Shown here: piece by piece, positions 1 to 32,123 of the stretch | Layout of the letters: each line of letters begins with the position of its first letter | How positions within the stretch are numbered: the first letter of the stretch is position 1 | IMG/VR virus record: IMGVR_UViG_3300045988_082739 | DNA from: a virus | DNA length: 32,123 nucleotides | Strand: one strand, 5' to 3' | Notes under the pieces: model-generated | The model's database searches: none | What the model was told of the DNA's origin: nothing | What the model saw: the letters and a program-made list of their open reading frames with translations, nothing else | Program-made: the position numbers and the translations under genes

Positions 1-242
1 ATAAGGTATCCGGCGCGACCTCCGGCAACTTTGCCGGGCTCGACGGGAACGGCAACCTCACGGACAGCGGAAAGAAAGCGGCGGATTTCGCCGCCGCAAA
101 TCATACCCACGACGGGAAAGCCGATAAGGTATCCGGCGCGACCTCCGGCAACTTTGCCGGGCTCGACGGGAACGGCAACCTCACGGACAGCGGAAAGAAA
201 GCCTCCGACTTTGCCGCCGCGACGCACTCTCACACGGGATAC
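1..242 (+). repeat. In-frame 123-nt (41-aa) tandem repeats inside the tail fibre gene (repeat 2 tail and repeat 3; the array starts at 31929)
   Basis: 1..68 equals 124..191 exactly. 69..123 and 192..246 are related but diverged. Peptide unit: DKVSGATSGNFAGLDGNGNLTDSGKKAADFAAANHTHxGKA. Confidence 0.85.
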
Positions 243-515
243 GCCGAGGTCAAGATTTTTACGGACGTATCCGTACCGGCCTCCGCGTGGGGGAACGACT
301 CCACCTACGGGGCCTATCCATTCGCGGCGACCATCACGGCGGCGGGCGTGACGACGGCGCACGTTCCCGAGGTCAACTACGGCGCGACGGAGGCCGCGAG
401 CGGGGATTTCGCCCCGGTCGCCTCCTCCGGGAGCGGGACGGTGAAAATCTACGCGGCGGTCAAGCCGACGGCGGCTATCACTATCCCCTCTATTATCTGT
501 ATAAAGGCGGTGTAA
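1..515 (+). CDS. Tail fibre protein, 3' portion (continuation of the ORF leaving the window at 32123; frame 3, stop TAA 513-515)
   Basis: 1..68 is identical to 32056..32123 and the reading frame is continuous (..GKADKVSGATSGNFAGLDGNGNLTDS..). Frame 3 is open to 515. The listed ORFs 31..351 and 287..1015 are in other frames. The product contains 41-aa repeats. Confidence 0.8.
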   Translation, partial: KVSGATSGNFAGLDGNGNLTDSGKKAADFAAANHTHDGKADKVSGATSGNFAGLDGNGNLTDSGKKASDFAAATHSHTGYAEVKIFTDVSVPASAWGNDSTYGAYPFAATITAAGVTTAHVPEVNYGATEAASGDFAPVASSGSGTVKIYAAVKPTAAITIPSIICIKAV

Positions 516-518
516 AAA

Positions 519-1769
519 ATGGCAATTGGACGAACGAACGCGGTCGGCAAGGCGGGGACGCAGTTCTCCCTTGTCGTGACCGTAGAGACCGGCTCCCTCG
601 TGACCGCGACAAAGGGCTCGCGGAGCGTGAGCGGGACGGCGGTAAATGGCTCGTGCGTGCTGACGCTCCCGGAGGCCGGGACGTGGACAGTTACCGCGAC
701 CCGGAGCGGGCAGACCTCGGACACAAAGACCGTGAGCGTGGTCGACAGCTACGCGGTAACGCTCACGTTCTTCTCGGCGACGATTACCGTTACCGCGCCC
801 TCCGGCGCTACCGTGACGCTCAAAAAGGGCGGCTCCACGGTGGACAGCAAGACGAGCACCGGCACGGCGGTATTTACCGTCTACGAGACCGGCGAGTACA
901 CCGTCGAGGCCACGCAGGGCGGGCAGAGCACGAGCGGCACGGTAAACGTCGTCTCCTCGACGACCTCCTATGCGATTACCCTCTCTTTCGTGAGCGACAC
1001 GCTCAACGAAAATAGTTGGGACACCATTTCCGAGGTCTCCGACGCGGGAGAGGGCGCGAACTATTGGGCCATCGGCGACCGAAAGCAAGTTACCCTCAAC
1101 GGAACGGTCGGGAGCCTATCCCTCTCGAATTTCTCGACCTACGCTTTTATCATCGGGTTCAATCACAACTCGAGCCGCGAGGGTTCGGGCCGTATCCATT
1201 TCCAGCTTGCAAAGACGGCCCTCTCCGGCGGGAAGGACATTTGCTTTACCGACGGCTCCTATAACTCGTCCGGCTCCTCGGCGGCGTTCCGCATGAACAC
1301 GAGCAACACCAACTCCGGCGGGTGGGAGGACTCGTACATGAGGAATAATATTTGTGGTACGAGCAAGTCGACGACCTCGGGCCGCATTATGGGAGCTATA
1401 CCCGCCGAACTCCGTAACGCGCTCAAGAGCGTTACAAAGTACACGAATAATAACGGGAGTAGCTCAGCCTCGAGCGCCGTCACCGCGACCACAGATTACT
1501 TTTTCCTCCTCTCGGAGTACGAGGTATTCGGGAATATCACATACTCGAACAGCTACGAGGCAAATTATCAACAGCAATACGCCTACTACTCCGCCGGAAA
1601 CAGCAAGGTCAAATACCGGCACAACAGCACAGGGAGCGCCGCTTATTGGTGGCTCCGGTCCCCGCGTGCGGGCAGCTCCGGCACTTTCGTGAGTGTGTAC
1701 ACCGGCGGCACAGTCAGCTACGACAACGCGTACATTTCGCTCGGGTTCGCGCCGGGCTTTTGCGTATAA
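519..1769 (+). CDS. DGR target protein 1 / putative receptor-binding protein: two Ig-like beta-rich repeats plus a C-terminal WWLRSP-type (DUF6273 / C-type-lectin-like) variable domain
   Basis: The ATG lies 4 nt after the fibre stop. Internal repeats are GTWTVTATRSGQTSDTKTVSVV and GEYTVEATQGGQSTSGTVNVV. The C-terminus YWWLRSPRAGSSGTFVSVYTGGTVSYDNAYISLGFAPGF carries VR1. Confidence 0.85.
   Translation: MAIGRTNAVGKAGTQFSLVVTVETGSLVTATKGSRSVSGTAVNGSCVLTLPEAGTWTVTATRSGQTSDTKTVSVVDSYAVTLTFFSATITVTAPSGATVTLKKGGSTVDSKTSTGTAVFTVYETGEYTVEATQGGQSTSGTVNVVSSTTSYAITLSFVSDTLNENSWDTISEVSDAGEGANYWAIGDRKQVTLNGTVGSLSLSNFSTYAFIIGFNHNSSREGSGRIHFQLAKTALSGGKDICFTDGSYNSSGSSAAFRMNTSNTNSGGWEDSYMRNNICGTSKSTTSGRIMGAIPAELRNALKSVTKYTNNNGSSSASSAVTATTDYFFLLSEYEVFGNITYSNSYEANYQQQYAYYSAGNSKVKYRHNSTGSAAYWWLRSPRAGSSGTFVSVYTGGTVSYDNAYISLGFAPGFCV
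1637..1756 (+). repeat. DGR variable repeat VR1
   Basis: Aligns without gaps to TR 2299..2418 (offset 662). There are 15 differences at TR adenines and 1 at a TR thymine (TR 2320 T vs 1658 G). The 3' 21 nt ttcgctcgggttcgcgccggg is invariant. Confidence 0.9.
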
Positions 1770-1781
1770 TTAGGGCTTTCG

Positions 1782-1808
1782 GAATTGCGCCCTCAATGGG
1801 CGCAATTC
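1782..1808 (+). promoter_or_regulatory. Perfect 11-bp hairpin (gaattgcgccc / gggcgcaattc) with a TCAAT loop, 25 nt after VR1; candidate DGR target-recognition hairpin/cruciform
   Basis: The inverted repeat was read directly. No T-tract follows it. It has the same loop and closing C-G pair as the hairpin after VR2. Confidence 0.6.
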
Positions 1809-1838
1809 TCCGGCCAGACACAGGAAAGGGGCGAAAGA

Positions 1839-2258
1839 ATGAGCGTGCCGAAATCACGGCGGGGCGAGAGCCCCGCGCAGTATATCGACCTCGCCCGCGA
1901 GATATATGTCTTTACCTATAACCGCGTGCGGCTTTTGCCGAAAGCCTATACGTTCTATTTCTCCTTGCCGCTATACAACGCGGCGCGGACGGCCTACCGG
2001 CTCGTCAAGACGGCAAACCTCATTTACATAGACCCGAAACAAGAGGGCCCGGTCGTGGAGCGCAATAAACAGCGCCGCCGGGAGCTCTACGAGAACGCGC
2101 AGGGCTATTATAACAATATGCTCGACGTGCTCGACCTCGCGTTTATGACCGTCAATCACGAGAAGATACCGCCGTCCGTTCTGAAACAGTGGGTCGGTAT
2201 GATTACCGACGAAATCTATCAAATTTCCAAAATCAAGCGGAGCGACAAAGGCCGATAG
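1839..2258 (+). CDS. avd: DGR accessory variability determinant (Avd-like basic four-helix-bundle protein), 139 aa
   Basis: It sits between the target gene and the TR, as in the canonical BPP-1 mtd-avd-TR-brt order. The protein is small, basic and predicted helical (AQYIDLAREIYVFTYNRVRLLPKAYTFYFSLPLYNAARTAYRLVKTAN). ATG 1839 has GGAAAGGGG upstream. The listed TTG start at 1785 lies inside the hairpin. Confidence 0.7.
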   Translation: MSVPKSRRGESPAQYIDLAREIYVFTYNRVRLLPKAYTFYFSLPLYNAARTAYRLVKTANLIYIDPKQEGPVVERNKQRRRELYENAQGYYNNMLDVLDLAFMTVNHEKIPPSVLKQWVGMITDEIYQISKIKRSDKGR

Positions 2259-2298
2259 GCCGGAGCCGCCCCGTTTCGATTTAGGCCGTATCCCGCCT

Positions 2299-2418
2299 CG
2301 CCGCTAATTGGTGGCTCCGTTCCCCGAATGCGGGCAACTCCAACAATTTCGTGAATGTGAACACCGACGGCACAGTCAACAACAACAACGCGAACAATTC
2401 GCTCGGGTTCGCGCCGGG
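2299..2418 (+). repeat. DGR template repeat (TR), 120 nt with 30 adenines and 13 in-phase AAY codons
   Basis: It lies in non-coding DNA between avd and the RT and is homologous to VR1 and VR2. When phased on the VR frame it reads ANWWLRSPNAGNSNNFVNVNTDGTVNNNNANNSLGFAPG. The similarity weakens after 2418 (gggAtttcgc in the TR versus gggCtttt / gggCtttg in the VRs). Confidence 0.9.
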
Positions 2419-2658
2419 ATTTCGCATAAGCCAGACCGATTAACTCCTTGAGAGCTAAAGCCGTGCGTATGCAAAAGGGGGATACGACCTCTCCGACCGC
2501 CCGCAAGGGCACGACGACAAACTGATAGCTCGACACGGAGGGCCGGACGCTCCTTGCATGGCGGCGGCGTGCGCGTTTGCCGCCGTTTCATGGCCTCACC
2601 GTTACGCAATTTAGACAACGCGCCGAGAAAGAATTGTGCGAGGTATTTTTATTTTGTT
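2299..2658 (+). ncRNA. Putative DGR RNA (TR plus about 240 nt spacer upstream of the RT)
   Basis: By analogy with the BPP-1 TR-Sp RNA. No credible ORF is present: the - strand ORFs 2219..2536 and 2376..2618 overlap the TR. Local stems are present (ggcggc..gccgcc near 2560-2590). The boundaries are not determined. Confidence 0.45.
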
Positions 2659-3774
2659 ATGAACAGTGCAGAAAGACACGAGGCAAGATACCAACGGCGG
2701 CGGGCCGCGCGGCTCGAGAAAAGGGCGAGGGACACAAAGGAGCTCGGAGATTTCGAGTCGGTTTTTTCGTTCGAGCACCTATACGCGGCCTACCGCGCGT
2801 CGGTAAAGGGTGTCGGGTGGAAAGCGAGCACGCAGAGATACAAGGCGAGCGCCCTCGCGAACATCGACAAGACACACAACGCACTATTGAGCGGGACGTT
2901 CAAGCCGAAAGGCTTTTACGAGTTCGATATTATCGAGCGCGGAAAGCCTCGGCATATTCGGAGCGTCCACATAAGCGAGCGCGTCGTCCAGCGGTGCCTA
3001 TGCGATTACTCCCTTGTCCCTATGCTCTCCCGGTCGTTCATCTACGACAACGGGGCCAGTTTGCAGGGCAAGGGATACGATTTCGCCGTCCGCCGGGTGA
3101 CGCGGTTCCTCGCGAAACACTATCGCCAGCACGGGCGGGAGGGCTACGCGCTGGTATTTGATTTCTCGAAATACTTTGATACCGCGCAACACGCGCCGGT
3201 ATTTAGGGCTATCGAGAAAAGCGGTATCGACGACCGGCTCGTCGCCCTCTCCGAGTATTTTATAAAATGCTTTGGGGACGAGGGGCTCGGGCTCGGGAGC
3301 CAAGTCTCGCAAATTGCCGCTATCGCCCTCCCGAACAAAATCGACCATTATATCAAGGACGTTTTGCGGATGAAGTTCTACGAGCGGTATATGGACGACG
3401 GGCTCATTATCAGCCGGTCGAAAGAAAAGCTCCGGGAGTGCCTCGAGGCTCTCCGGCGGCTTTGTGCCGAACACGGGATAAAGCTCAACGAGAAAAAGAC
3501 GCAGATCATCAAGCTCACGCGGGGCTTTACGTTCCTAAAGGTGCGGTTCCGATACGGAAAGACGGGAGCGGTCGTCCGGCGTGCCAGCTATAAGAGCGTC
3601 CGGCAAATGCGGAAAAAGCTAAAGATTTTCCGGCGGTGGGTGGACTCCGGGCGTATGGAGCCGGAGGACGTTCGCGCGTCGCTCACATCATGGAGCGGGT
3701 ACATGAGGAGATTTCACTCCTATTTCGCCGTTCAATCAGTCATGCAGAAATACCGCGAGCTTTTCGCGGCATAG
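2659..3774 (+). CDS. DGR reverse transcriptase (371 aa from ATG 2659; alternative upstream starts at 2554/2590)
   Basis: RT motifs are LVFDFSKYFDT (A), LGLGSQVSQIAAIAL (the DGR-typical [I/L]GxxxSQ), YERYMDDGLII (YxDD), LNEKKTQII and GFTFLKV. The gene is directly downstream of the TR. Confidence 0.9.
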   Translation: MNSAERHEARYQRRRAARLEKRARDTKELGDFESVFSFEHLYAAYRASVKGVGWKASTQRYKASALANIDKTHNALLSGTFKPKGFYEFDIIERGKPRHIRSVHISERVVQRCLCDYSLVPMLSRSFIYDNGASLQGKGYDFAVRRVTRFLAKHYRQHGREGYALVFDFSKYFDTAQHAPVFRAIEKSGIDDRLVALSEYFIKCFGDEGLGLGSQVSQIAAIALPNKIDHYIKDVLRMKFYERYMDDGLIISRSKEKLRECLEALRRLCAEHGIKLNEKKTQIIKLTRGFTFLKVRFRYGKTGAVVRRASYKSVRQMRKKLKIFRRWVDSGRMEPEDVRASLTSWSGYMRRFHSYFAVQSVMQKYRELFAA

Positions 3775-3786
3775 GAGGGGTCAAGT

Positions 3787-4173
3787 ATGGAATACGTCGT
3801 TTATAAGCGGTTCAAGGAAAAGGGTATCGACGGGCGGTTTAACCTCCCGTTTGGTACGGTATGCGAGGAGCGGGGCGGCTACCTTTTCGCCCAGGACGGT
3901 CGCCGCATTTGCGCCGTGAAATCCGAAAACGGGTGGGGCCATTTCCGACCGAACACGGAGGAGGGCCGGAGGCGGCTCGTCATGCTTGAGCGGCTCTATC
4001 GCTACTATGCGCCCGGCGGGAAGAAAGCGCCGGAGGGCAACGCCGCCGAGGATTTCGACCCGGATAAATGGCAGGGGGCGGAAAATACATACTGGAAAAG
4101 CCTACTCCGCACCATGCCGACGGACAAGCTCGAGGCGTTCTATCGGGCCCGGCTCGGAGAGCCGGAGTATTGA
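3787..4173 (+). CDS. Hypothetical protein (128 aa)
   Basis: Long ORF in the operon orientation with GGAGGGG upstream. No family recognised. Confidence 0.6.
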   Translation: MEYVVYKRFKEKGIDGRFNLPFGTVCEERGGYLFAQDGRRICAVKSENGWGHFRPNTEEGRRRLVMLERLYRYYAPGGKKAPEGNAAEDFDPDKWQGAENTYWKSLLRTMPTDKLEAFYRARLGEPEY

Positions 4174-4185
4174 GGAGGTATCACC

Positions 4186-4500
4186 ATGTATAAAGTCACG
4201 GTCGACGGAGTTTTCGCCGGATACTCCGATACGGCGGTTTTCGTCCGGCTCCACGAGAACGGGTGCTATATCCCTTGTGAGGAGACGGAGGCCGAGGGCG
4301 TATGCGTAAAGCTCCCCTACGAGTTCCAAGACGACGAGGGGAACACGGTACGCACGGTCGAGGATATTGTTTTCTCACTCACGGAGGGCGGCTTATCCGG
4401 CATTGAACAGGTGGCGGAGCTCGAACACGCGAGCGGGCCGCTCATGCTCTCGGAGGCCGAGGCCGTCGTCGATATTCTGTTAGGAGGTAGCGGAGAATGA
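4186..4500 (+). CDS. Hypothetical acidic protein (104 aa)
   Basis: GAGGAGG RBS upstream. The stop overlaps the next start (ATGA). Confidence 0.6.
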   Translation: MYKVTVDGVFAGYSDTAVFVRLHENGCYIPCEETEAEGVCVKLPYEFQDDEGNTVRTVEDIVFSLTEGGLSGIEQVAELEHASGPLMLSEAEAVVDILLGGSGE

Positions 4501-4910
4501 TTACACGGGAAAGAGCGCGGGAACTCCGGGCCGTTATCGAAAGCGCGGTATCCGCATACGGGCTCGACGACGCGGCGGCGGTCGCGGTCGTGGAGCTTTT
4601 CCCTCAATGGGAGGTCGGGAAAACATATGCCATCGGAACAAGGGTACAGCACGACGGAAAGCTCTACGAGTGCGTCAACGCGCACACGGCGGCGGCGGAG
4701 TGGAGCCCGTCGGTCGCCGCCTCCCTTTGGGACGAGGTTAAAGTCGACCCGGAAACGGGATATGACGAGTGGCAACAGCCGTCCGGCGCTCACGACGCAT
4801 ACAACACCGGCGACCGTGTTGTCTATAATGGCTCCGTGTACGAGAGCCTTATCGACGGCAACGTATGGGCCCCGGACGCATACCCGGCAGGGTGGAAAAT
4901 CGTCGAATGA
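4497..4910 (+). CDS. Protein with two CBM5/12-like carbohydrate-binding repeats
   Basis: Two copies of the pattern Y..G..V..(D/N)G.(L/V)YE......W.P....(L/G)W: YAIGTRVQHDGKLYECVNAHTAAAEWSPSVAASLW and YNTGDRVVYNGSVYESLIDGNVWAPDAYPAGW. Confidence 0.5.
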   Translation: MITRERARELRAVIESAVSAYGLDDAAAVAVVELFPQWEVGKTYAIGTRVQHDGKLYECVNAHTAAAEWSPSVAASLWDEVKVDPETGYDEWQQPSGAHDAYNTGDRVVYNGSVYESLIDGNVWAPDAYPAGWKIVE

Positions 4911-5122
4911 GGGCGGCGATATACACGGTCTCAAAGGGCGGGAAAGAAATCGCTCGCCTCCCCGCGCTGATATGGGTACGGCTCGCGGAGCCGGGCCTTT
5001 ATCTCGTATGCGGAGAGGACGATGGCGAGGGCGTGCTCGTGGGCAGGGAGATATACCACGTCCGGGGGTGCCCTATCCTCCACGGAAAAGAGACCGTGAC
5101 GCTCGATTACATCGAAGAATAA
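4907..5122 (+). CDS. Hypothetical protein (71 aa)
   Basis: ATGA start/stop overlap with the preceding gene. Confidence 0.5.
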   Translation: MRAAIYTVSKGGKEIARLPALIWVRLAEPGLYLVCGEDDGEGVLVGREIYHVRGCPILHGKETVTLDYIEE

Positions 5123-5138
5123 CGGGAGGAAAAAGCGT

Positions 5139-5459
5139 ATGCAGTATGCGGAAATCATCATCGGGGCCGTGTGTACTATCGTCGGCGTTCTCTTGAGCTA
5201 TGCCGCCTTTGCCCGGAACTCGAAAAAGGACAGCGAGGCCAGCGGGAAAGAGAGCGGGACGGTGCTCACGGAGATAGGGTACATAAAGGGCGGGGTCGAC
5301 CGTATCGAGCGGAAACAGGACGAGCAGGACGCGAGGTATATCACTATGGCGGAGCGCGTTACCGCCATCGAGAGCTCCGCGAAACAGGCTCACAAGCGTA
5401 TCGACCGGCTCGAGGGGCACGAGAACGACCGTTTTTCGGAGGCGGTTCATAATGAGTAG
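5139..5459 (+). CDS. Lysis-cassette membrane protein: N-terminal TM helix plus coiled coil
   Basis: IIIGAVCTIVGVLLSYAAF hydrophobic helix followed by a charged helical region. Located just upstream of the holin-like genes. Confidence 0.55.
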   Translation: MQYAEIIIGAVCTIVGVLLSYAAFARNSKKDSEASGKESGTVLTEIGYIKGGVDRIERKQDEQDARYITMAERVTAIESSAKQAHKRIDRLEGHENDRFSEAVHNE

Positions 5460-5784
5460 CGGTAAGCGGGTGGCAAAGACCGACGGGAAATTGAAAAAGG
5501 CGGCGGGGGCCGTGTGGAGCTTTGTAAAGGGGTATCTCACCTTTTCAAAGCTCCTCGTTTTCGCCGTGCTTTTTATCGACTACAAGGCGACTATGGTAAC
5601 GCTCGACTTGTGCTATATCGCCGTAGCGAACAATTATACCGGGAGCCTCCCGTACCTGACCGCCCTTATCGCCTTTTTACAGGCCGCGACCGCGACCGTG
5701 CTCTCGTTCTCGCTCAATAAGAGCAAGGCCGAGAACACGACCGGCGGTATCACATACGAGGCAAATATAAAAAGAGATTGTTAG
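5452..5784 (+). CDS. Holin-like membrane protein (2 predicted TM helices)
   Basis: Hydrophobic segments LLVFAVLFIDY..MVTLDLCYIAV and LPYLTALIAFLQAATATVLSF. Located upstream of the endolysin. Confidence 0.5.
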   Translation: MSSGKRVAKTDGKLKKAAGAVWSFVKGYLTFSKLLVFAVLFIDYKATMVTLDLCYIAVANNYTGSLPYLTALIAFLQAATATVLSFSLNKSKAENTTGGITYEANIKRDC

Positions 5785-5795
5785 GAGGTAAAGAC

Positions 5796-6011
5796 GTGAA
5801 CAAGAACATCGTAAAGCGGCTCGCCGCCCTCTTGAGCGTCAAGAGCATTGTAACGCTCTTGCTCTCCGGGGTATTCGCCTACCTCGCAATTACGGGGAAC
5901 ACGAGCCAAGAGTTTATGACCGTCTACACGGTCGTTATCGCGTTCTATTTCGGAACGCAGACGCAGAAAATCAGCGACGCGGTAGCACAGAGCGAGGAGG
6001 GCAAGGAATGA
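5796..6011 (+). CDS. Holin (71 aa, 2 TM helices)
   Basis: GTG 5796 lies 7 nt after AGGAGG (5783-5788). TM segments are IVTLLLSGVFAYLAI and FMTVYTVVIAFYFG. ATGA overlap with the endolysin start. Confidence 0.6.
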   Translation: MNKNIVKRLAALLSVKSIVTLLLSGVFAYLAITGNTSQEFMTVYTVVIAFYFGTQTQKISDAVAQSEEGKE

Positions 6012-6823
6012 ACTTGCACAAGTGCATTTTGACAAGGAACGATTGCTATACCTCCGGGCGGACGATTACGCCGCGCGGCGTTATGGTACATTCGACCGGG
6101 GCGAATAATCCGACCCTCCGCCGGTACGTCCAGCCGGACGACGGACTATTAGGGGACAACAGGTACGACAACGATTGGAACAGGCCGGGAACGGGCGCTT
6201 GTGTTCATGCCTTTATCGGAGAGCTCGCCGACGGCTCCGTCGCGACCTATCAGACCTTGCCGTGGAATTGGCGCGGGTGGCACGCCGCCTCCGGCCCGAA
6301 CGGGAGCGCGAACAACACGCATATTTCTTTCGAGATTTGCGAGGACGGTCTCGACGACCCCGTTTATTTTGCGAAAGTCTATCAAGAGGCCGCGGAGCTG
6401 ACCGCGTACCTTTGCAAGCTGTACGGCCTCGACCCGGAGGCCGACGGGGTAGTTATCTGCCATAGCGAGGGGCACACGCGCGGTATCGCCTCAAATCATG
6501 GGGACGTTATGCACTGGTTCCCCCGGCACGGTAAAAACATGGATGATTTCCGGGCGGAAGTCGCCCGGCTTATCAAAAATCAAAGCGGAAAGGATGAATT
6601 GGACATGACAAAAGAGGAGCTCGTTTCTTGCGCTGGTACAGGCGACAACCCCTCCGGGTGGGCTCGTGAGCACACGGAGTATTGCAAGCAAAAGGGCATT
6701 TTCGCCGGAGACGGAGCGGGTAACTACGGTTGGCAACAGCCGATTACCCGAGAGGCCGTCGCGACCATCGTACACCGCGCTCTTGAGGTCGCGGGACTTG
6801 CCGACAGTATCCCGGACGCATAA
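6008..6823 (+). CDS. Endolysin: N-acetylmuramoyl-L-alanine amidase (Amidase_2/PGRP-like) with a C-terminal SLH-like wall-binding segment
   Basis: Motifs MVHSTGANNP, CVHAFIG, WHAASGPNGSANNTHISFEICED and ICHSEGH. The C-terminal GIFAGDGAGNYGWQQPITREAVATIVHRAL resembles an SLH motif. Confidence 0.8.
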   Translation: MNLHKCILTRNDCYTSGRTITPRGVMVHSTGANNPTLRRYVQPDDGLLGDNRYDNDWNRPGTGACVHAFIGELADGSVATYQTLPWNWRGWHAASGPNGSANNTHISFEICEDGLDDPVYFAKVYQEAAELTAYLCKLYGLDPEADGVVICHSEGHTRGIASNHGDVMHWFPRHGKNMDDFRAEVARLIKNQSGKDELDMTKEELVSCAGTGDNPSGWAREHTEYCKQKGIFAGDGAGNYGWQQPITREAVATIVHRALEVAGLADSIPDA

Positions 6824-6837
6824 GCAGGACACAGAGA

Positions 6838-6968: not shown

Positions 6969-7511
6969 CTACTTTTTGAAATAGACCGCAATATCGAGGC
7001 CGTAGTTTGCACGCTCCCCGTCGCTATCCTCGTACACAAAGCCGCCGGTAACGTCGTAGGACTCGACCCTCTCGAAACGGTCTATTTGCGAGAGCGCCCG
7101 CTTGAGGTCGCCGGTCGAGATACTCCCGACTTGCTCCTCGCCGTAGAACACGCCGACGGCGGGCTTGCCCTCGAAATCATACTTTCGGAGGGAAAAAGAG
7201 TACGTCGAGGGCTCCTCCCGTTTGATTTCCCGGAGTATCGTTTGACGGCTCCGGCCTCCGGGGTTCTTGAATGTCACGCCGACGACCCGGAATATCTCCC
7301 GGTTTAGGGTGGCGCGGTATGCCTCCTCCCGCCGCCGGGCCTCCTCCCTCTCGGCCTCTTTCCGGGCTTTCTCCTCGGCCTGGAGCCGTGCGGCCTCCGC
7401 CGCCTCTTTCTTGAGCTCGTTCTTTTTCCATAGCCGGTATATGAGTACGCAGATACCGACCGGGTAGAATATGACGAGTAAGACGATTTGCCACGTTTTG
7501 AGCTTTTTCAT
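6969..7511 (-). CDS. Membrane-anchored protein: N-terminal TM helix, charged coiled coil, HIRAN-like C-terminal domain (paralog of 24795..25346)
   Basis: MKKLKTWQIVLLVIFYPVGICVLIYRLWKK, then an E/K/R-rich helix, then FRVVGVTFKN..RSRQTILREI...GKPAVGVFYGEEQVGSIS. It has its own promoter. The HIRAN call is pattern-based only. Confidence 0.7.
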   Translation of the reverse strand: MKKLKTWQIVLLVIFYPVGICVLIYRLWKKNELKKEAAEAARLQAEEKARKEAEREEARRREEAYRATLNREIFRVVGVTFKNPGGRSRQTILREIKREEPSTYSFSLRKYDFEGKPAVGVFYGEEQVGSISTGDLKRALSQIDRFERVESYDVTGGFVYEDSDGERANYGLDIAVYFKK

Positions 7512-8517: not shown

Positions 8518-9564
8518 ATGGCACGGGCGAAATATAAGCAACTCGATAGAGACCGGCGGCTCCAAATGGAGGCGCTCTTTCGGGCCGGTCTAAAGCCTCG
8601 CGCGATTGCGGAGCAAATCGGGTGCCATATCTCGACCGTGTATCGGGAGTTCCGGCGGGGCGAGTATGAGCACCTAAACAGCGATTACACCACGGAGCGC
8701 CGGTACAGCGCAGACAAGGCCGAGGCCCTCCACCAACTCAACGCGACCGCGAAAGGGGCCCCGCTCAAGATAGGGAAAAACTTTGCCGTCGCGGAGTTCA
8801 TCGAGGGGAAGATAAAGGACGACAAATACTCCCCGGCGGCGGTATGCGCCCTCTTGCGGACGGAGGAGTACGCTCATTTCGGTATCACCTTTTGCCGGGC
8901 CACGATTTACAAGTATATCGAGGACGGGAATATCTTTCCGAACATCACGAACAAAGACCTCCCGGAAAAAGGCGAGCGCAAGCGGGAGTATAACAGGGTG
9001 CGGGAAAAGAAAGAGCCTCGGGGCCGGAGTATCGAGGAGCGGGCGGCGGAGGTCGACGAGCGGCAAGAGCCGGGGCATTGGGAAATGGATAGCGTCCTCG
9101 GAAAGAAAGGGACAAAGGCGCGGCTCCTCGTCCTCTCGGAGCGGGTGACGCGGAGCGAGATTATCATAAAGATACAGGACGGGCGGGCGATTACGGTCGT
9201 CCGGGCCCTCGACCGCCTCGAGCGGGAGCTCGGAGACCTTTTCCCCGTGATATTCAAGTCGATAACGTGCGACAACGGCTCCGAGTTCGCGAATTGGGCC
9301 GGTATCGAGCGTAGCGTATGGAAACGAAAGGGACAGCGGACGACGGTTTATTTCTGCCATCCGTACACCGCTTGCGAACGAGGCACGAATGAGAACATAA
9401 ACAGAATGATACGCCGCCACTTCCCGAAAGGTACGGATTTCGGGAAAGTGACGGCGGCGGAGGTAAAGCGAGTCGAGCGGTGGATTAACACCTATCCGCG
9501 CGAGATTTTAGGCTTTTCGTCCTCCGCTGATATGTTCGCGGAGGCGTTTGGGCGGGCCTCTTGA
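8518..9564 (+). CDS. IS30-family DDE transposase / integrase (348 aa)
   Basis: N-terminal HTH (AIAEQIGCHISTVYREFRRGE). Catalytic region HWEMDSV ... ITCDNGSEFANW ... HPYTACERGTNENINRMIRRHFPKGTDF, the typical IS30 DD(33)E signature. No flanking inverted repeats could be found by eye. Confidence 0.85.
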   Translation: MARAKYKQLDRDRRLQMEALFRAGLKPRAIAEQIGCHISTVYREFRRGEYEHLNSDYTTERRYSADKAEALHQLNATAKGAPLKIGKNFAVAEFIEGKIKDDKYSPAAVCALLRTEEYAHFGITFCRATIYKYIEDGNIFPNITNKDLPEKGERKREYNRVREKKEPRGRSIEERAAEVDERQEPGHWEMDSVLGKKGTKARLLVLSERVTRSEIIIKIQDGRAITVVRALDRLERELGDLFPVIFKSITCDNGSEFANWAGIERSVWKRKGQRTTVYFCHPYTACERGTNENINRMIRRHFPKGTDFGKVTAAEVKRVERWINTYPREILGFSSSADMFAEAFGRAS

Positions 9565-12339: not shown

Positions 12340-12566
12340 AGAACGAGAAAAGCCGCCCGGCGGAGTACCGGCCTACCGCGAGCGGGCCCATGAAATTATA
12401 CCTCGTCCGGCATAAGGACGGGCAGGAAATCACGGTAAACGGTCGGAACAGGTACGAGGCCGTTACCGCCGCCGCCAGAAAATGGGGCGTGCGGTGGACA
12501 AGCATAGCTCGGGCGTGCGAGTTTATCGAGCTCGCCTCCGAGGACGAGGAGGAAACAGCACCATGA
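12336..12566 (+). CDS. Hypothetical protein (76 aa)
   Basis: ATGA coupling at both ends. Confidence 0.5.
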   Translation: MKNEKSRPAEYRPTASGPMKLYLVRHKDGQEITVNGRNRYEAVTAAARKWGVRWTSIARACEFIELASEDEEETAP

Positions 12567-13186
12567 CAGCAAGAGAACAGCGCCAGCAGAGGCGCAGAGT
12601 CCGCGCTATCCGGCGGCGGGTCGCCGGTATGCTCGCTTTGTTGACCGTCCTCGCCGCCCTTGTGCTCTATGCGGCCTCCTATACATGGACGGAGCCGGAG
12701 GACAAGCTCGACCCGCCGGAGATAGACCCGCTCCCGACCACTACGGTAACGACCGTCGAGGCCGCGCCGCCGGTAACACTGGCTCCCGTGGCGGAGTCGG
12801 AGGCCGTCTCCCGGTACGCCGGTATCGAAATAAGCGACGAGGACGTTTATACCCTCGCTTGCCTCGCCTATCACGAGGCACGGGGCGAGCCGTTCGAGGG
12901 GCAGGTCGCCGTTATCGAGGTCGTGCTCAATCGGTGCTTGTCCGACTACTTCCCGGATACGGTCGAGGAGGTCGTATTTCAGAAGTACGGCGACGTATGG
13001 CAGTTCTCCCCCGCTCCATATCTCTACACAGCGGAGCCGACGGAAACGCAGTACGAGGCCGTCTATGCCGCACTCGCGGCGGAGGAGCCTATCCTCCCTC
13101 TCGATACGGTGTACTTTTCCACGGGGCCCTATAACGACAGCATTGTCGCGGTTATAGGAAATCATTACTTTTGCTCAATTTTTTAA
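12563..13186 (+). CDS. Membrane-anchored SleB-like cell-wall hydrolase (Hydrolase_2 family), 207 aa
   Basis: N-terminal Arg-rich segment plus TM helix (MLALLTVLAALVLYAA). Catalytic-domain pattern LACLAYHEARGEPFEGQVAVIEVVLNR...VEEVVFQKYGDVWQFS. Confidence 0.7.
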   Translation: MTAREQRQQRRRVRAIRRRVAGMLALLTVLAALVLYAASYTWTEPEDKLDPPEIDPLPTTTVTTVEAAPPVTLAPVAESEAVSRYAGIEISDEDVYTLACLAYHEARGEPFEGQVAVIEVVLNRCLSDYFPDTVEEVVFQKYGDVWQFSPAPYLYTAEPTETQYEAVYAALAAEEPILPLDTVYFSTGPYNDSIVAVIGNHYFCSIF

Positions 13187-13199
13187 GGAGGGTGCAGTT

Positions 13200-13835
13200 A
13201 TGAACATCACGCGCAGAGTTACGGAGGCCGTCGATTTCGAGTACATGAAAGCGGCTATCGACGCAGGAAACGGCCCGGAGTTCGTGAGACCGTTCGACGA
13301 GCTCGTTATCCCGCTCGAGAACGGAAAAGTCGTTACCGCTGTATGCGGCGGATATGCGGGAGACCGACGGGCCCGGTTCGTGCTCAAGGATTGCTTACCG
13401 GAGCTCCACGTCATGAACAAGAGCACGACCAACGCGGGCGGCTATTTCAAGAGCGAGGGGAGGCGGCACGTCCTCGAGGACATTCTCCCGCTCTTTCCGG
13501 CATGGATCCGGGACGCTATGAAACCCCGTAGCATGGTCGAGGTTATAGACGGAGAGGAAATCGTCTACTCTGACGCGCTTTGGGTGCCGTCGGCGACCGA
13601 CGTATTCGGGCCCGGCGATTATTGGGCCGAGGAGCGAGACAGTGAGCAACTCGAGATTTTCAAGACGGAGCGGGGCCGCGTAAAAGAGGTCGAGGGACGG
13701 GGGACGTATTATTGGTGGCTCCGTTCCCCGCGTGCGGGCAACTCCTACCGTTTCGTGAGTGTGGTCACCGGCGGCACAGTCTACTACAGCGGCGCGTACG
13801 ATTCGCTCGGGTTCGCGCCGGGCTTTGACCTGTAA
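13200..13835 (+). CDS. DGR target protein 2 (211 aa, DUF6273 / C-type-lectin-like domain only, no signal peptide seen)
   Basis: The C-terminus YYWWLRSPRAGNSYRFVSVVTGGTVYYSGAYDSLGFAPGF carries VR2. AGGAGGG RBS upstream. Confidence 0.85.
   Translation: MNITRRVTEAVDFEYMKAAIDAGNGPEFVRPFDELVIPLENGKVVTAVCGGYAGDRRARFVLKDCLPELHVMNKSTTNAGGYFKSEGRRHVLEDILPLFPAWIRDAMKPRSMVEVIDGEEIVYSDALWVPSATDVFGPGDYWAEERDSEQLEIFKTERGRVKEVEGRGTYYWWLRSPRAGNSYRFVSVVTGGTVYYSGAYDSLGFAPGFDL
13709..13822 (+). repeat. DGR variable repeat VR2
   Basis: Aligns without gaps to TR 2305..2418 (offset 11404). All 17 differences are at TR adenines, with no other mismatch. Confidence 0.9.
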
Positions 13836-13851
13836 AATTCGGAATTAAAAG

Positions 13852-13878
13852 CCCTCCCCGGCTCAATGCTGGGGAGGG
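13852..13878 (+). promoter_or_regulatory. 11-bp hairpin (ccctccccggc / gctggggaggg, one G-T pair) with a TCAAT loop, 29 nt after VR2
   Basis: Read directly. It has the same loop and closing C-G pair as 1782..1808 but an unrelated stem sequence. No T-tract follows. Confidence 0.6.
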
Positions 13879-14732: not shown

Positions 14733-14793
14733 CGAGGGAGGAGGGAGCGCGAGGGAGGAGGGAGGGGGCGGTCTATGAGCCCTCCTCCCTCGC
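14733..14793 (+). repeat. Iteron-like element upstream of rep: two direct 15-nt copies cgagggaggagggag (14733-14747, 14750-14764) and an inverted copy (14780-14793) forming a 14-bp perfect stem
   Basis: Read directly. The region lies in a 270-bp stretch with no convincing ORF, next to an AT-rich patch at 14561-14590. Confidence 0.6.
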
Positions 14794-14819
14794 AACGGGT
14801 AACACTCGGAGGGTGCAGA

Positions 14820-15596
14820 ATGAGGACAGTCTATCGTGAAAAGCGGTATTATTGCGGGGAGTACCTCGACGTATTTATTTTCCCGGTTTATAGCTCGGGA
14901 AAGAAAGGGTCGAGAGGAAAACGGGGAAAGCCAACCTCCGCCGCACAAAAGAAACTCAATCAGCGGCACAGGGAGGAAAAGCTCGTTCGGCTCCTCCATG
15001 CCAACTTTACGCCGGAGGATTTAGAATTGCACTTGACGTATGCGGAACAGCCGGAGGACGACGAGGCCGCGAAACGGGAGCTCGCGAATTTCCTCCGCCG
15101 GGTGCGCCGGTATCGGAAAAAGAACGGCCTCCCGCCGCTGAAATATATCGCTGTGACGGAGCGCGGGAAACGGGGCGGTCGCTATCACCACCACGTCACG
15201 ATAAACGGGGGTATCGACCGGGATGTTTTAGAAAGCCTTTGGGGGCTCGGCTATGCCAACTCCCGCCGCTTGCAGTTCACGGAGAACGGCCTCGCCGGTC
15301 TCGGAAATTACATCGTGAAAAGCCCGGTCGGGGGCAAGGCGTGGAACGCCTCGAAAAACCTCGTCGACCCGGAGCCGAGGACGCGGGACGGGCATATCTC
15401 CGCCCGCCGTGCTCGGGAGCTTTCGCAGGACACGACGGACAACACGGAGTTTGAAAAGCTCTATCCGGGGTATTTTCTCTCGGAGGCCGGGGCTTTCCAC
15501 AACGACGTGAACGGCGGATATTACATAATCGCGAGATATTACCGCAAAGACGGGGTATTTATCAAACCGAAACGGAAACGGAGGGCTCGAAAATGA
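14820..15596 (+). CDS. rep: Rolling-circle-type replication initiator (HUH endonuclease superfamily), 258 aa
   Basis: Motif 1-like LELHLTYA, HUH motif RYHHHVTING and Tyr motif GLGNYIVKSP. GGAGGG RBS 5-6 nt upstream of ATG 14820. Confidence 0.55.
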   Translation: MRTVYREKRYYCGEYLDVFIFPVYSSGKKGSRGKRGKPTSAAQKKLNQRHREEKLVRLLHANFTPEDLELHLTYAEQPEDDEAAKRELANFLRRVRRYRKKNGLPPLKYIAVTERGKRGGRYHHHVTINGGIDRDVLESLWGLGYANSRRLQFTENGLAGLGNYIVKSPVGGKAWNASKNLVDPEPRTRDGHISARRARELSQDTTDNTEFEKLYPGYFLSEAGAFHNDVNGGYYIIARYYRKDGVFIKPKRKRRARK

Positions 15597-31595: not shown

Positions 31596-32123
31596 ATGGC
31601 AGAACTCGTAACAATGTACCCGGCGCAGGCAAACACGCCGGAGACCACGCTCGCCGGGTCACTGACGACCACGGGGACGAGCGTTACCGTCCTCGACGGC
31701 TCCGTATTGCCGGAGGCCCCGAACTATCTCACCATCGGGGCAGACTCCGCAACGGCGGAAACGGTGCTCATGACGGCAAAGAACGGGAACGACCTCACTA
31801 TCACGCGGGGCCAAAACGGGACAGCGGCCCGCGCGTGGGGCAAGGGCGATATTATCGGTCGATACTTCACGGCGGCAGACCATGACGCGCTACGGGAAAA
31901 TATCGAGACCCTCAACACGGAAAAGCCGGATAGGGTCGCGAGCCCCGTCGACGGGAACTTTGTCGCATTCGACGGCACGACCGGCGCGCAGAAAGACAGC
32001 GGCAAGAAAGCGGCGGATTTCGCCGCCGCAAATCATACCCACACCGGGAAAGCCGATAAGGTATCCGGCGCGACCTCCGGCAACTTTGCCGGGCTCGACG
32101 GGAACGGCAACCTCACGGACAGC
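31596..32123 (+). CDS. Tail fibre protein, 5' portion (open to the window end; continues at base 3)
   Basis: ATG 31596 follows GGGAGG. There are 176 codons without a stop. The ORF is absent from the track because it has no stop inside the window. Confidence 0.8.
   Translation, partial: MAELVTMYPAQANTPETTLAGSLTTTGTSVTVLDGSVLPEAPNYLTIGADSATAETVLMTAKNGNDLTITRGQNGTAARAWGKGDIIGRYFTAADHDALRENIETLNTEKPDRVASPVDGNFVAFDGTTGAQKDSGKKAADFAAANHTHTGKADKVSGATSGNFAGLDGNGNLTDS
32056..32123. repeat. Terminal overlap identical to 1..68 (circular closure of the assembly; genome unit 32,055 bp)
   Basis: Exact 68-nt identity read directly. The same 68-mer also occurs at 124..191 because it lies inside the 123-nt tandem repeat. 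Confidence 0.8.

Follow-up and report, generated by a model that had tools for sequence, protein, structure and literature searches.

Sequence evidence for a complete two-target diversity-generating retroelement with an RT-2 RNA in a gut phage of Oscillospiraceae

The phage DNA analysed here (IMG/VR virus record IMGVR_UViG_3300045988_082739; 32,123 nucleotides, hereafter the window) almost certainly carries a complete diversity-generating retroelement (DGR), composed of target gene 1 with its variable repeat (VR1), an Avd-like accessory gene, a template repeat (TR), an RT-2 RNA and a reverse transcriptase (RT), together with a remote target gene 2 bearing VR2. The parts of the element, its hairpins and the tail-fibre-like ORF upstream of it lie on the + strand. 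Every defining DGR element named in the initial annotation was borne out, including the ORFs at 519..1769, 1839..2258 and 2659..3774. The element resides in a temperate-type, siphovirus-like gut phage of Oscillospiraceae whose genome measures ~31.9 kb. The contig shows circular permutation, with 98% identity between positions 31995-32123 and 63-191 and with a tail-fibre-like ORF that runs off the window end and resumes at position 1.

The TR (2299-2418) contains 30 adenines in 120 nt and aligns without gaps to VR1 (1637-1756). The alignment has 16 mismatches, and 15 of them fall at TR adenines, exactly the positions listed previously. Per-base mismatch classification confirmed that every C and G of the TR is retained in VR1, and the sole non-adenine mismatch (T2320 to G) is a synonymous Arg change. 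Given 30 adenines per 120 nt, the probability of at least 15 of 16 mismatches falling at adenines is 1.1e-8. The second VR, implied by the earlier mention of "both VRs", was found at 13709-13822. It matches TR 2305-2418 and all 17 mismatches are at TR adenines (P = 1.4e-10). A search for a third VR on both strands of the window found none. Read in the frame of the VR, the TR carries the 13 AAY codons reported before, as well as ACC, GAC and ACA codons. The last 21 nt of the TR are adenine-free, GC-rich and the same in TR, VR1 and VR2. Weaker homology to the TR extends beyond VR1 to 1766, and imperfect homology to the VRs extends beyond the TR to 2428, including a fixed A at 2419.

This A lies just past the adenine-free block, where both VRs have C. 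The TR-A/VR-C difference falls at the synonymous site of a Gly codon (GGN) and is fixed in nearly all relatives, which strengthens the suggestion of an IMH versus IMH* distinction; the fixed difference marks the boundary of transfer. Downstream of VR1, a candidate target-recognition hairpin or cruciform is located at 1781..1809 (GGAATTGCGCCC-TCAAT-GGGCGCAATTCT). Its DNA fold has a z-score of -3.5 (0 of 200 shuffles fold as well), its core GCGCCC-TCAAT-GGGCGC is kept in relatives, and there is no T-run on its 3' side. The hairpin after VR2 (13852..13878; CCCTCCCCGGC-TCAAT-GCTGGGGAGGG; z = -2.7) is also GC-rich and has a different stem with the same TCAAT loop. In relatives the VR2 hairpin has a perfect stem and a TCAAT loop, while the copy in the window has a G-T mismatch. 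No such hairpin follows the TR. These structures match the hairpin required downstream of the VR in BPP-1 (PMC3240598), and their 5-nt TCAAT loop does not fit the 4-nt GRNA loop consensus reported for phage DGRs.

Target gene 1 (519..1769) encodes a protein of 416 aa with two ~73-aa beta-sandwich-type repeats (internal repeat with 43% identity, E = 1e-11) followed by a DUF6273 domain (Pfam E = 4.4e-13, residues 260-416) that holds VR1 at its C-terminus. The protein also matches PHROG 37900 (E = 9e-95) and, weakly, MG2 and Filamin. Target gene 2 (13200..13835; 211 aa, pI 5.0) encodes a single DUF6273 domain (Pfam E = 6.1e-11) with VR2 at its end; it shares the strand of the TR at a distance of 11.4 kb, and its start is 14 nt downstream of a Hydrolase_2 gene. 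The DUF6273 domain of DGR targets has been reported as C-type-lectin-like (PMC10743442, PMC11792537). The AF2 model for the putative lectin fold had a pLDDT of 39, and profile searches with the targets gave no match to Mtd or in the PDB.

The ORF upstream of target gene 1 is split by the window ends, with its 5' part at 31596..32123 (ATG 31596, no stop codon before the window end) and its 3' part at 1..515. Its position after the tape-measure, Dit and tail-protein genes and its 123-nt tandem repeats fit the tail-fibre assignment of the initial annotation; a Pfam search gave no match, and no tail-fibre family match supports the name. Target gene 1 starts 3 nt after this ORF (stop codon 513-515, ATG 519), not 4 nt as first described. 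Judging from this position directly after the tail genes, the target 1 protein is most likely a tail component that serves in receptor binding or adhesion. It may form the receptor-binding tip, and tropism switching may be the purpose of the element, as had been proposed. The DGR could instead work on a Hoc- or tentaclin-like adhesin of the capsid or virion surface, with mucus or other non-host ligands as its binding partners, a placement we regard as possible but clearly less probable. Residues 250-413 of target 1 match PHROG 10993 ("Hoc-like head decoration", E = 9e-9), the combination of Ig-like repeats with a lectin-like domain resembles adhesins (discussed in PMC10743442), and the lack of a family match for the upstream ORF adds to this possibility. 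However, the PHROG 10993 match is limited to the DUF6273 part, target gene 1 starts immediately past the tail module, and the VR-bearing gene of Dulem virus 34 itself comes after baseplate and tail genes.

The DGR appears to have been recently active, as judged from genome comparison. In 8 near-identical genomes the TR is 100% identical, and VR1 shows 124 adenine-site changes versus 3 others, with each of the 30 TR adenines changed at least once. The VR1 copies are pairwise distinct and each pair differs at no fewer than 14 adenine sites, while the adjacent DNA is only ~0.2% different in some of the genomes. Compared with the window, two relatives (L005 and L089) have 1 mismatch over the 542 nt that separate VR1 from the TR, and 16-17 over the 120-nt VR. 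The identical TR, divergent VR1 and ~0.2% neighbouring difference together indicate very recent homing in the lineage. The population comparison supports the expectation that VR polymorphism is confined to adenine-templated positions. In relatives L083-L085, VR2 changes occur only at adenine sites downstream of the VR2 5' boundary. The layout recurs in about 65 of 80 relatives from IMG/VR and in Dulem virus 34; in these genomes most or all mismatches fall at adenines. A relic, whose VRs were diversified formerly and which is now inactive in this genome, is unlikely. In its favour, the T2320-to-G change in VR1 points to ordinary mutation after the most recent homing event, the G-T mismatch in the VR2 hairpin is absent from relatives, and no activity was seen at read level in the published relatives Lelie, Lagaffe_CP and CP11 (PMC11792537). 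Against this, all ORFs are intact, the RT has YMDD, and the lineage combines an invariant TR with the VR1 divergence described above.

The RT gene (2659..3774) encodes 371 aa with a Pfam RVT_1 match (E = 6e-20). The motifs described from the translation were located: YMDD at residue 244 and LGSQVSQ, of the LGxxxSQ type, at residue 212. This (I/L)GxxxSQ motif is accompanied by a KPR arginine that aligns with R74 of Brt. The best PDB matches belong to the 8ub7-8ube series (E = 5.6e-22), labelled DGR ribonucleoprotein by Foldseek, whereas a group II intron RT reached only 4.5e-8. In direct comparison the RT is 27% identical to BPP-1 Brt (E = 1e-25). The assignment to the DGR type holds, with the BPP-1 DGR RT as nearest relative ahead of the group II intron RT. 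In NCBIfam the best match was a group II intron RT model with 81.7 bits, far below the 300-bit cutoff, and other generic RT models (Drt3a, retron St85 and PADLOC RT models) matched weakly.

The spacer between TR and RT is filled by an RT-2 RNA (Rfam RF03077; 2426..2666), which matches the family over its full length (1-222) with 130.1 bits versus a gathering score of 40. The RNA was found in the equivalent place in all 12 relatives tested. RNAalifold analysis of 17 spacers gave 39 pairs, 28 of them with compensatory changes. Rfam describes the family only as "RT-2 RNA". As a control, RF03022 was found at the equivalent spacer place of BPP-1 (for this parallel see PMC5737381). By analogy, the RT-2 RNA would correspond to the spacer RNA of BPP-1. 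The Rfam search gave no group II intron or retron RNA, and no promoter was identified. That the element is no DGR at all, and that the three repeats are paralogous lectin-domain segments shaped by ordinary mutation or gene conversion beside a retron, group II intron or defence RT, has virtually no probability left and is effectively refuted already: the generic RT matches that favour it are far below curated cutoffs, mismatches are confined to TR adenines (P ~1e-8 and 1e-10), both VRs vary beside a non-coding TR that stays constant, the best structural relative of the RT is a DGR RT, and Rfam returned RT-2 instead.

The accessory gene (1839..2258) encodes a protein of 139 aa. The pI, 9.75, agrees with the mean of 9.5 +/- 0.7 published for Avd proteins (PMC5758913), and the AF2 model has four helices (pLDDT 70). 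Foldseek searches of the PDB gave 2gsc and 2rld as top matches, with 8ube_D also in the list, and ranks 2-4 in BFVD were "Avd-like protein"; all E-values were above 0.001. Among 73 remote relatives of the protein, 6 match Pfam bAvd or 23S_rRNA_IVP, and the gene keeps its cassette position in all relatives. The protein had no direct match to Avd models, and hhalign against BPP-1 Avd was negative. The earlier reading as a small basic helical Avd-like protein is upheld by its place in the cassette, its length and charge, the predicted fold and transitive Pfam matches, but not by a direct match to an Avd model.

The element resembles the BPP-1 DGR (mtd-avd-TR-brt) in the order of target/VR, small basic accessory gene, TR, structured spacer RNA and RT, in adenine-specific mutagenesis, in the GC-rich, adenine-free 3' end of TR and VR with a TR/VR difference just beyond, in the GC-rich hairpin downstream of the VR, and in its RT, related to Brt at the identity given above. 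It differs in having two targets instead of one, DUF6273 targets without detectable similarity to Mtd, an accessory protein without detectable sequence similarity to BPP-1 Avd, RT-2 (RF03077) instead of Phage_DGR (RF03022) as spacer RNA, and a hairpin whose stem of 11-12 bp and 5-nt TCAAT loop stand in place of the 8 bp and GAAA of BPP-1.

Further parallels are found in gut phages. At the nucleotide level, the window resembles GenBank phage records over short pieces only. The DGRs of the Faecalibacterium phages and prophages Lelie and CP11 (PMC11792537) are likewise of the gut Oscillospiraceae type, with one TR for two variable regions, a large and a small DUF6273 target with the VR at the DUF6273 C-terminus, and adenine-specific variation across cognate genomes; this likeness is drawn from the published description. 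Avd does not occur in the main text of that paper. The gut phage DGRs nd4 and nd12 (PMC10743442) also have two targets, and their second target (DUF6273 only, 234-294 aa, C-terminal VR), modelled as C-type-lectin-like by the authors, resembles target 2. In tentaclins (PMC10743442) the lectin domain is N-terminal, its VR lies close to the 5' end of the gene, and Ig domains follow. Target 1, by contrast, has N-terminal Ig-like repeats and a C-terminal VR-bearing domain, and is not a tentaclin. The cassette, Avd-like family and RT-2 RNA are shared with Dulem virus 34 (PP511788.1), ~80 IMG/VR contigs and prophages of Oscillospiraceae/Christensenellaceae MAGs. Dulem virus 34 has a canonical GAAA hairpin loop, in contrast to TCAAT in the window clade; its VR-bearing gene is annotated as "Ig-like domain protein" and the remaining cassette as "hypothetical protein", with no DGR annotated. 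Two-target DUF6273 DGRs are already published for Faecalibacterium and related gut phages (PMC11792537, PMC10743442). What is new here, the RT-2 RNA link and the unusual TCAAT loop, is a modest addition.

By analogy with BPP-1, the RT and the basic four-helix Avd-like protein would bind a transcript of the TR and the adjoining RT-2 RNA, the structured part of which would position the TR 3' end for self-primed cDNA synthesis. The RT would copy C, G and U faithfully and misincorporate opposite adenines, and the cDNA would replace VR1 or VR2, guided by the GC-rich 3' block that lacks adenine, together with the GC-rich TCAAT-loop hairpin that follows the VR. In this way 17 codons (13 AAY plus ACC, GAC and ACA) would be randomised, none of them able to become a stop codon. 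Arithmetically, such randomisation would correspond to ~1e17 protein variants per target, on the putative ligand-binding face of the DUF6273 domain.

The template repeat (TR, 2299–2418) and the variable repeat of target 1 (VR1, 1637–1756) aligned without gaps and with 16 mismatches. Fifteen of these fell on exactly the TR adenines named in the initial annotation, and no C or G of the TR was altered in VR1, as had also been claimed. Given 30 adenines in the 120-nt TR, the probability that at least 15 of 16 mismatches fall on adenine is 1.1e-8. The sole non-adenine mismatch is at T2320, where the change from T to G is synonymous (CGT to CGG). When phased to the VR frame, the TR contains the 13 AAY codons reported earlier and, in addition, ACC, GAC, and ACA. 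Stop codons cannot be reached through adenine changes in any of these codons, and the number of peptide variants permitted is, by our own arithmetic, ~15^13 x 4^3, or roughly 1e17.

A second variable repeat was found by scanning the window with tolerance for adenine mismatches, which returned a single extra copy. This repeat, VR2 (13709–13822), is the counterpart of TR 2305–2418 and forms the C-terminus of target 2 (ORF 13200..13835, 211 aa), and its mismatches to the TR were all at adenines (17 of 17, P = 1.4e-10). A search of both strands of the window for a third VR found none. The end of the VR is located 13 nt before the stop codon both in target 1 (ORF 519..1769, 416 aa) and in target 2. 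The start of the reverse transcriptase (RT) gene is separated by 241 nt from the TR, a non-coding repeat upstream of it. The VRs are thus at the 3′ ends of coding targets and a non-coding TR is near the RT, in agreement with the criteria for a diversity-generating retroelement (DGR).

Related genomes were used in place of reads as an equivalent test of element function. The TR was base-for-base identical in seven public contigs, namely five from IMG/VR (L003–L007) and two metagenome-assembled genomes (L089, Oscillospiraceae; L090, Candidatus Gallimonas), and the comparison with the window therefore covered eight genomes. Relative to the TR, the eight VR1 copies carry 124 changes at adenine positions and 3 elsewhere. 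All 30 TR adenines are altered in at least one copy, and any two copies differ at 14 or more positions; the first six identical-TR genomes alone gave the same adenine-restricted pattern. In particular, L005 and L089 each have 1 mismatch to the window in the 542 nt that separate VR1 from the TR and 16–17 mismatches within the 120-nt VR1. Variation of VR2 in three relatives (L083–L085) was likewise restricted to adenine sites; there, the 5′ end of the repeat is shifted inward by a few bases. The cassette layout and the adenine bias were observed in roughly 65 of 80 viral contigs related to the window, with RT identities from 56% to 99%, for which the scoring favours adenine mismatches, so that the counts at individual loci serve as description rather than as a test. 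Dulem virus 34 (PP511788.1) also shows the layout and the bias. The unbiased evidence for adenine specificity consists of the TR/VR1 and TR/VR2 alignments of the window and the comparisons of the identical-TR genomes. Judged from these sequences, the element appears to have diversified its VRs in the population.

Non-adenine changes in VR1 were rare, amounting to 3 of the 127 differences in the eight genomes. They are located at window position 1658 (TR 2320), in L006 at TR 2330, and in L089 at TR 2359, and the synonymous T-to-G change of the window at TR 2320 is absent from all seven relatives. Such changes either arose by ordinary mutation after the most recent homing or reflect sporadic RT errors at non-adenine bases.

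The RT gene (2659..3774) encodes a protein matching Pfam RVT_1, in which the YMDD motif and the LGxxxSQ-type motif (LGSQVSQ) recognized in the initial annotation were both found. The best PDB match was the 328-aa RT of 8ub7–8ube (E = 5.6e-22), entries labelled as a DGR ribonucleoprotein by Foldseek, whereas the value for the match to a group II intron RT was 4.5e-8. Direct comparison with Brt, the RT of the reference DGR of Bordetella phage BPP-1 (mtd-avd-TR-brt), gave 27% identity over 320 residues (E = 1e-25); the alignment pairs the arginine of the KPR motif with Brt R74 and also aligns the L/IGxxxSQ motif. The motifs, the PDB match, and the Brt comparison consistently indicate that the protein belongs to the DGR RT group. 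Other identities were proposed by family models. The group II intron RT model of NCBIfam scored 81.7 bits against a cutoff of 300 and this identity was dropped. The Drt and retron identities suggested by NCBIfam and PADLOC were based on generic or far sub-cutoff matches and were also dropped.

Between target 1 and the TR, an accessory ORF (1839..2258) encodes a protein of 139 aa. The initial annotation described it as a small, basic, helical Avd-like protein. The description agrees with its pI of 9.75 and with an AF2 model consisting of four helices (pLDDT 70), but a direct match to an Avd model was not obtained. Specifically, direct searches of Pfam, NCBIfam, PADLOC, and PDB sequences returned nothing, the profile of its close family matched no Pfam, NCBIfam, or PDB sequence entry, and hhalign comparison of the family profiles with BPP-1 Avd gave a probability of <1%. 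The top Foldseek matches of the model in the PDB were 2gsc and 2rld (TM 0.60–0.66), of which 2rld bears the title ‘S23 ribosomal protein family’, and the BPP-1 Avd chain 8ube_D appeared lower in the list (TM 0.51), all with E-values >0.03. We take 2gsc and 2rld to be bundles of the PF05635/Avd-type family. In BFVD, the matches at ranks 2–4 were named ‘Avd-like protein’ (TM 0.62–0.66). Taken singly, the structural E-values all fall short of significance. An exhaustive HMM search gathered 73 remote relatives, 6 of which match Pfam bAvd PF22296 (5e-6) or 23S_rRNA_IVP PF05635 (2e-4). A homologue search with the Avd-like alignment gave mostly close relatives that were already known, and 1,953 clusters carried no Pfam label. 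All relatives carry the gene at this position, and the proteins have diverged to 25–35% identity. Avd proteins have a mean pI of 9.5 ± 0.7 and are ‘very poorly conserved’ (PMC5758913). With all lines combined, the accessory protein is probably Avd-like, and it is the least certain part of the element. The Avd-like family of this clade thus escapes current Avd models, and DGR finders could score such cassettes as lacking Avd.

[quoted passage not shown] The RNA was present in all 12 relatives tested (5483–5698 in Dulem virus 34, 4131–4346 in L002, and 5780–6003 in L074, among others). In the relatives it starts 0–9 nt past the TR–VR homology, where full-length TR calls were available, and runs up to the start codon of the RT gene. 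RNAalifold analysis of 17 spacers of the clade predicted 39 base pairs, 28 of which have compensatory changes. As a control, BPP-1 was found to carry RF03022 (Phage_DGR) at the equivalent place. The discoverers of the RT-associated motifs tied RT-10 alone to a DGR, located it in the TR-to-RT interval of BPP-1, and offered speculation on the other motifs (PMC5737381). RF03022 and RT-10 are taken here as the same family because both lie in that interval. The Rfam entry for RF03077 reads just ‘RT-2 RNA’ with no stated role, and our literature search found no paper that links RT-2 to DGRs. From its position and by analogy with BPP-1, we infer that RT-2 would be the spacer RNA of this DGR clade.

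The TR, VR1, and VR2 share an identical 21-nt block that is adenine-free and GC-rich. Directly after the block, an A of the TR is replaced by C in both VRs, a difference that nearly all relatives have fixed. It lies at the third position of a glycine codon (GGN) and is synonymous. If this adenine were copied, it should vary freely, and it is therefore placed outside the transferred segment. The fixed difference past the adenine-free block lends support to the earlier suggestion of a distinction between IMH and IMH*.

GC-rich hairpins follow both VRs. The hairpin of VR1 (GGAATTGCGCCC-TCAAT-GGGCGCAATTCT) is located 24 nt after the repeat and that of VR2 (CCCTCCCCGGC-TCAAT-GCTGGGGAGGG) 29 nt after it, and both lie in the interval typical of DGRs, in which a GC-rich hairpin or cruciform is located 4–34 bp downstream of the VR. 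Their stems of 11–12 bp differ in sequence and the 5-nt loop TCAAT is common to both. No comparable hairpin was found after the TR. Both stem structure and loop sequence are important for the BPP-1 hairpin, and hairpin loops of phage DGRs have 4 nt with a GRNA consensus (PMC3240598). The TCAAT loop departs from this consensus, which is a trait of known examples and does not define a DGR. The loop and the core of the stem are kept among close relatives, in agreement with the importance of both in BPP-1. In relatives at a greater distance the loop reads CTTGT, TTGTAT, or GAAA, and the canonical GAAA is that of Dulem virus 34. A non-GRNA loop common to two targets with unlike stems is a natural experiment that supports sequence-specific recognition of the loop. 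Intrinsic terminators were considered as another identity for the hairpins and were dropped, since neither is followed by a T-run and both are absent from the terminator scan. A sigma-70 scan of 1–4300 found no promoters.

Two further observations concern the regions flanking the VRs. The stem of the VR2 hairpin in the window (GCTGGGGAGGG, 13868–13878) contains a G-T mismatch and the corresponding stem in L083–L085 is perfect (GCCGGGGAGGG); the mismatch might lower the efficiency of VR2 homing in this genome. Exactly two copies of the 9-mer TTCGGAATT are present in the window (1778–1786 and 13838–13846). Both copies sit between the VR stop codon and the hairpin, 22 and 16 nt past the VR ends, and related VR1 flanks have ATTCGGAA at this position. 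TTCGGAATT may be an additional target-recognition motif.

In DGRs, a C-type lectin or Ig fold displays the variable residues. Both targets match Pfam DUF6273, for which a lectin fold is reported in the literature (PMC10743442). An AF2 model of the target 1 domain, built from a shallow alignment (81–91% identity), had a pLDDT of 38.7. PDB sequence and profile searches with the targets gave no match, and hhalign comparison of the target profile with Mtd, the BPP-1 target, gave a probability of 0.2%; the targets differ from Mtd in having no detectable sequence or profile similarity to it. In tentaclins, an N-terminal VR-bearing lectin domain is followed by Ig-like domains (PMC10743442). The order in target 1 is the opposite, with N-terminal repeats and a C-terminal DUF6273/VR domain, and target 2, unlike tentaclins, has no Ig-like part. 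Target 1 starts 3 nt past the fibre-like ORF. Its homologues (P0128–P0247) cluster at lengths of about 272, 302, 342, and 416 aa, which suggests that relatives vary in the number of ~73-aa beta-sandwich repeats (window 519–998) before the common DUF6273/VR domain. Target 1 is likely to serve in switching of host receptors or adhesion. A different possibility is that target 1 may be a Hoc-like adhesin.

Target 2 is an acidic single DUF6273 domain encoded outside the structural module. A Hydrolase_2 gene (12482–13186) encoding a SleB-type cell-wall hydrolase (Pfam, E = 1.3e-15) ends 14 nt before it, and the N-terminal region of the hydrolase resembles, by eye, a hydrophobic membrane segment. The adjacency is maintained in three relatives (L083, L085, and L086), and a functional pairing of the hydrolase with target 2 is possible from this gene order.

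The window represents a genome of about 31.9 kb that closes into a circle and has a GC content of 58%. Its ends overlap, with 63–191 98% identical to 31995–32123 inside the 123-nt tandem repeats of the fibre-like ORF, which wraps around the window ends (repeat region 1–246 and 31933–32123). The first 62 nt look like an assembly join caused by these tandem repeats, and the repeat copy number of the fibre-like ORF may therefore be unreliable. Genes for the large terminase, tape measure, Dit, a tail protein, and endolysin were identified. Also present are genes for an rve-type (DDE) transposase/integrase carrying HTH domains (8518–9564; PHROG 4646, E = 2e-123) and for a Rep protein of the rolling-circle type (14775–15596; PHROG 3584, E = 8e-77); for a siphovirus-like phage of 32 kb, this combination of an integration and a replication gene is unusual.

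The hosts belong to Clostridia of the Oscillospiraceae type. One of them, Acutalibacter caecimuris M00118, is cultured and carries a related prophage with an RT of 81% identity. A search of GenBank phages with the first 8 kb gave short, distant matches only. The same DGR cassette is present in Dulem virus 34 (2041–6824), where the DGR is unannotated: the VR-bearing gene is named ‘Ig-like domain protein’, the other cassette genes ‘hypothetical protein’, and the TR region is called as a small CDS (5361–5549). In a distant relative of 82.5 kb (L082, IMGVR_UViG_3300045988_098747), two tRNA genes (7125–7197 and 7282–7362) lie directly 3′ of the DGR RT.

We are thus nearly certain that the element, placed by the initial annotation at 519–3774, is a DGR. 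Its parts and their order, the TR-directed adenine variation of two targets, the transfer boundary, the conserved RNA, and the hairpins are read from the sequence and the comparisons. By reference to BPP-1 biology, the TR–RT-2 transcript would be bound by the RT and the Avd-like protein, and the spacer would self-prime cDNA synthesis. The RT would misincorporate opposite adenines, and the cDNA would then home into the VRs with the GC-rich block and the hairpin as guides. A broader proposal is that the cis elements of the clade differ from those of BPP-1, with RT-2 as a priming and scaffolding spacer RNA and a target hairpin whose 5-nt loop, TCAAT, is sequence-specific, and that target 2, as an acidic single domain encoded outside the structural module and directly after the hydrolase gene, may diversify a function other than tail adsorption, such as cell-wall recognition with the hydrolase; we regard this combination as rather unlikely.

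DGRs with large and small DUF6273 targets in Faecalibacterium and gut phages were already published in 2023–2024, and adenine-specific variation at the population level was also reported there (PMC10743442, PMC11792537). The assignment of RT-2, the common non-canonical loop, and the Avd-like family missed by current models are small additions to this work. The practical gains from this DGR are modest. The cultured A. caecimuris prophage makes the RT-2, Avd-like, and loop points testable. The RT-2 family, until now just ‘found near RT genes’, gains a likely function as a DGR spacer RNA. As a DGR, the element is clean and can be annotated in full. It comes from gut phages of Oscillospiraceae that form an abundant group, and its activity is supported by natural population data beyond the TR/VR comparison alone.
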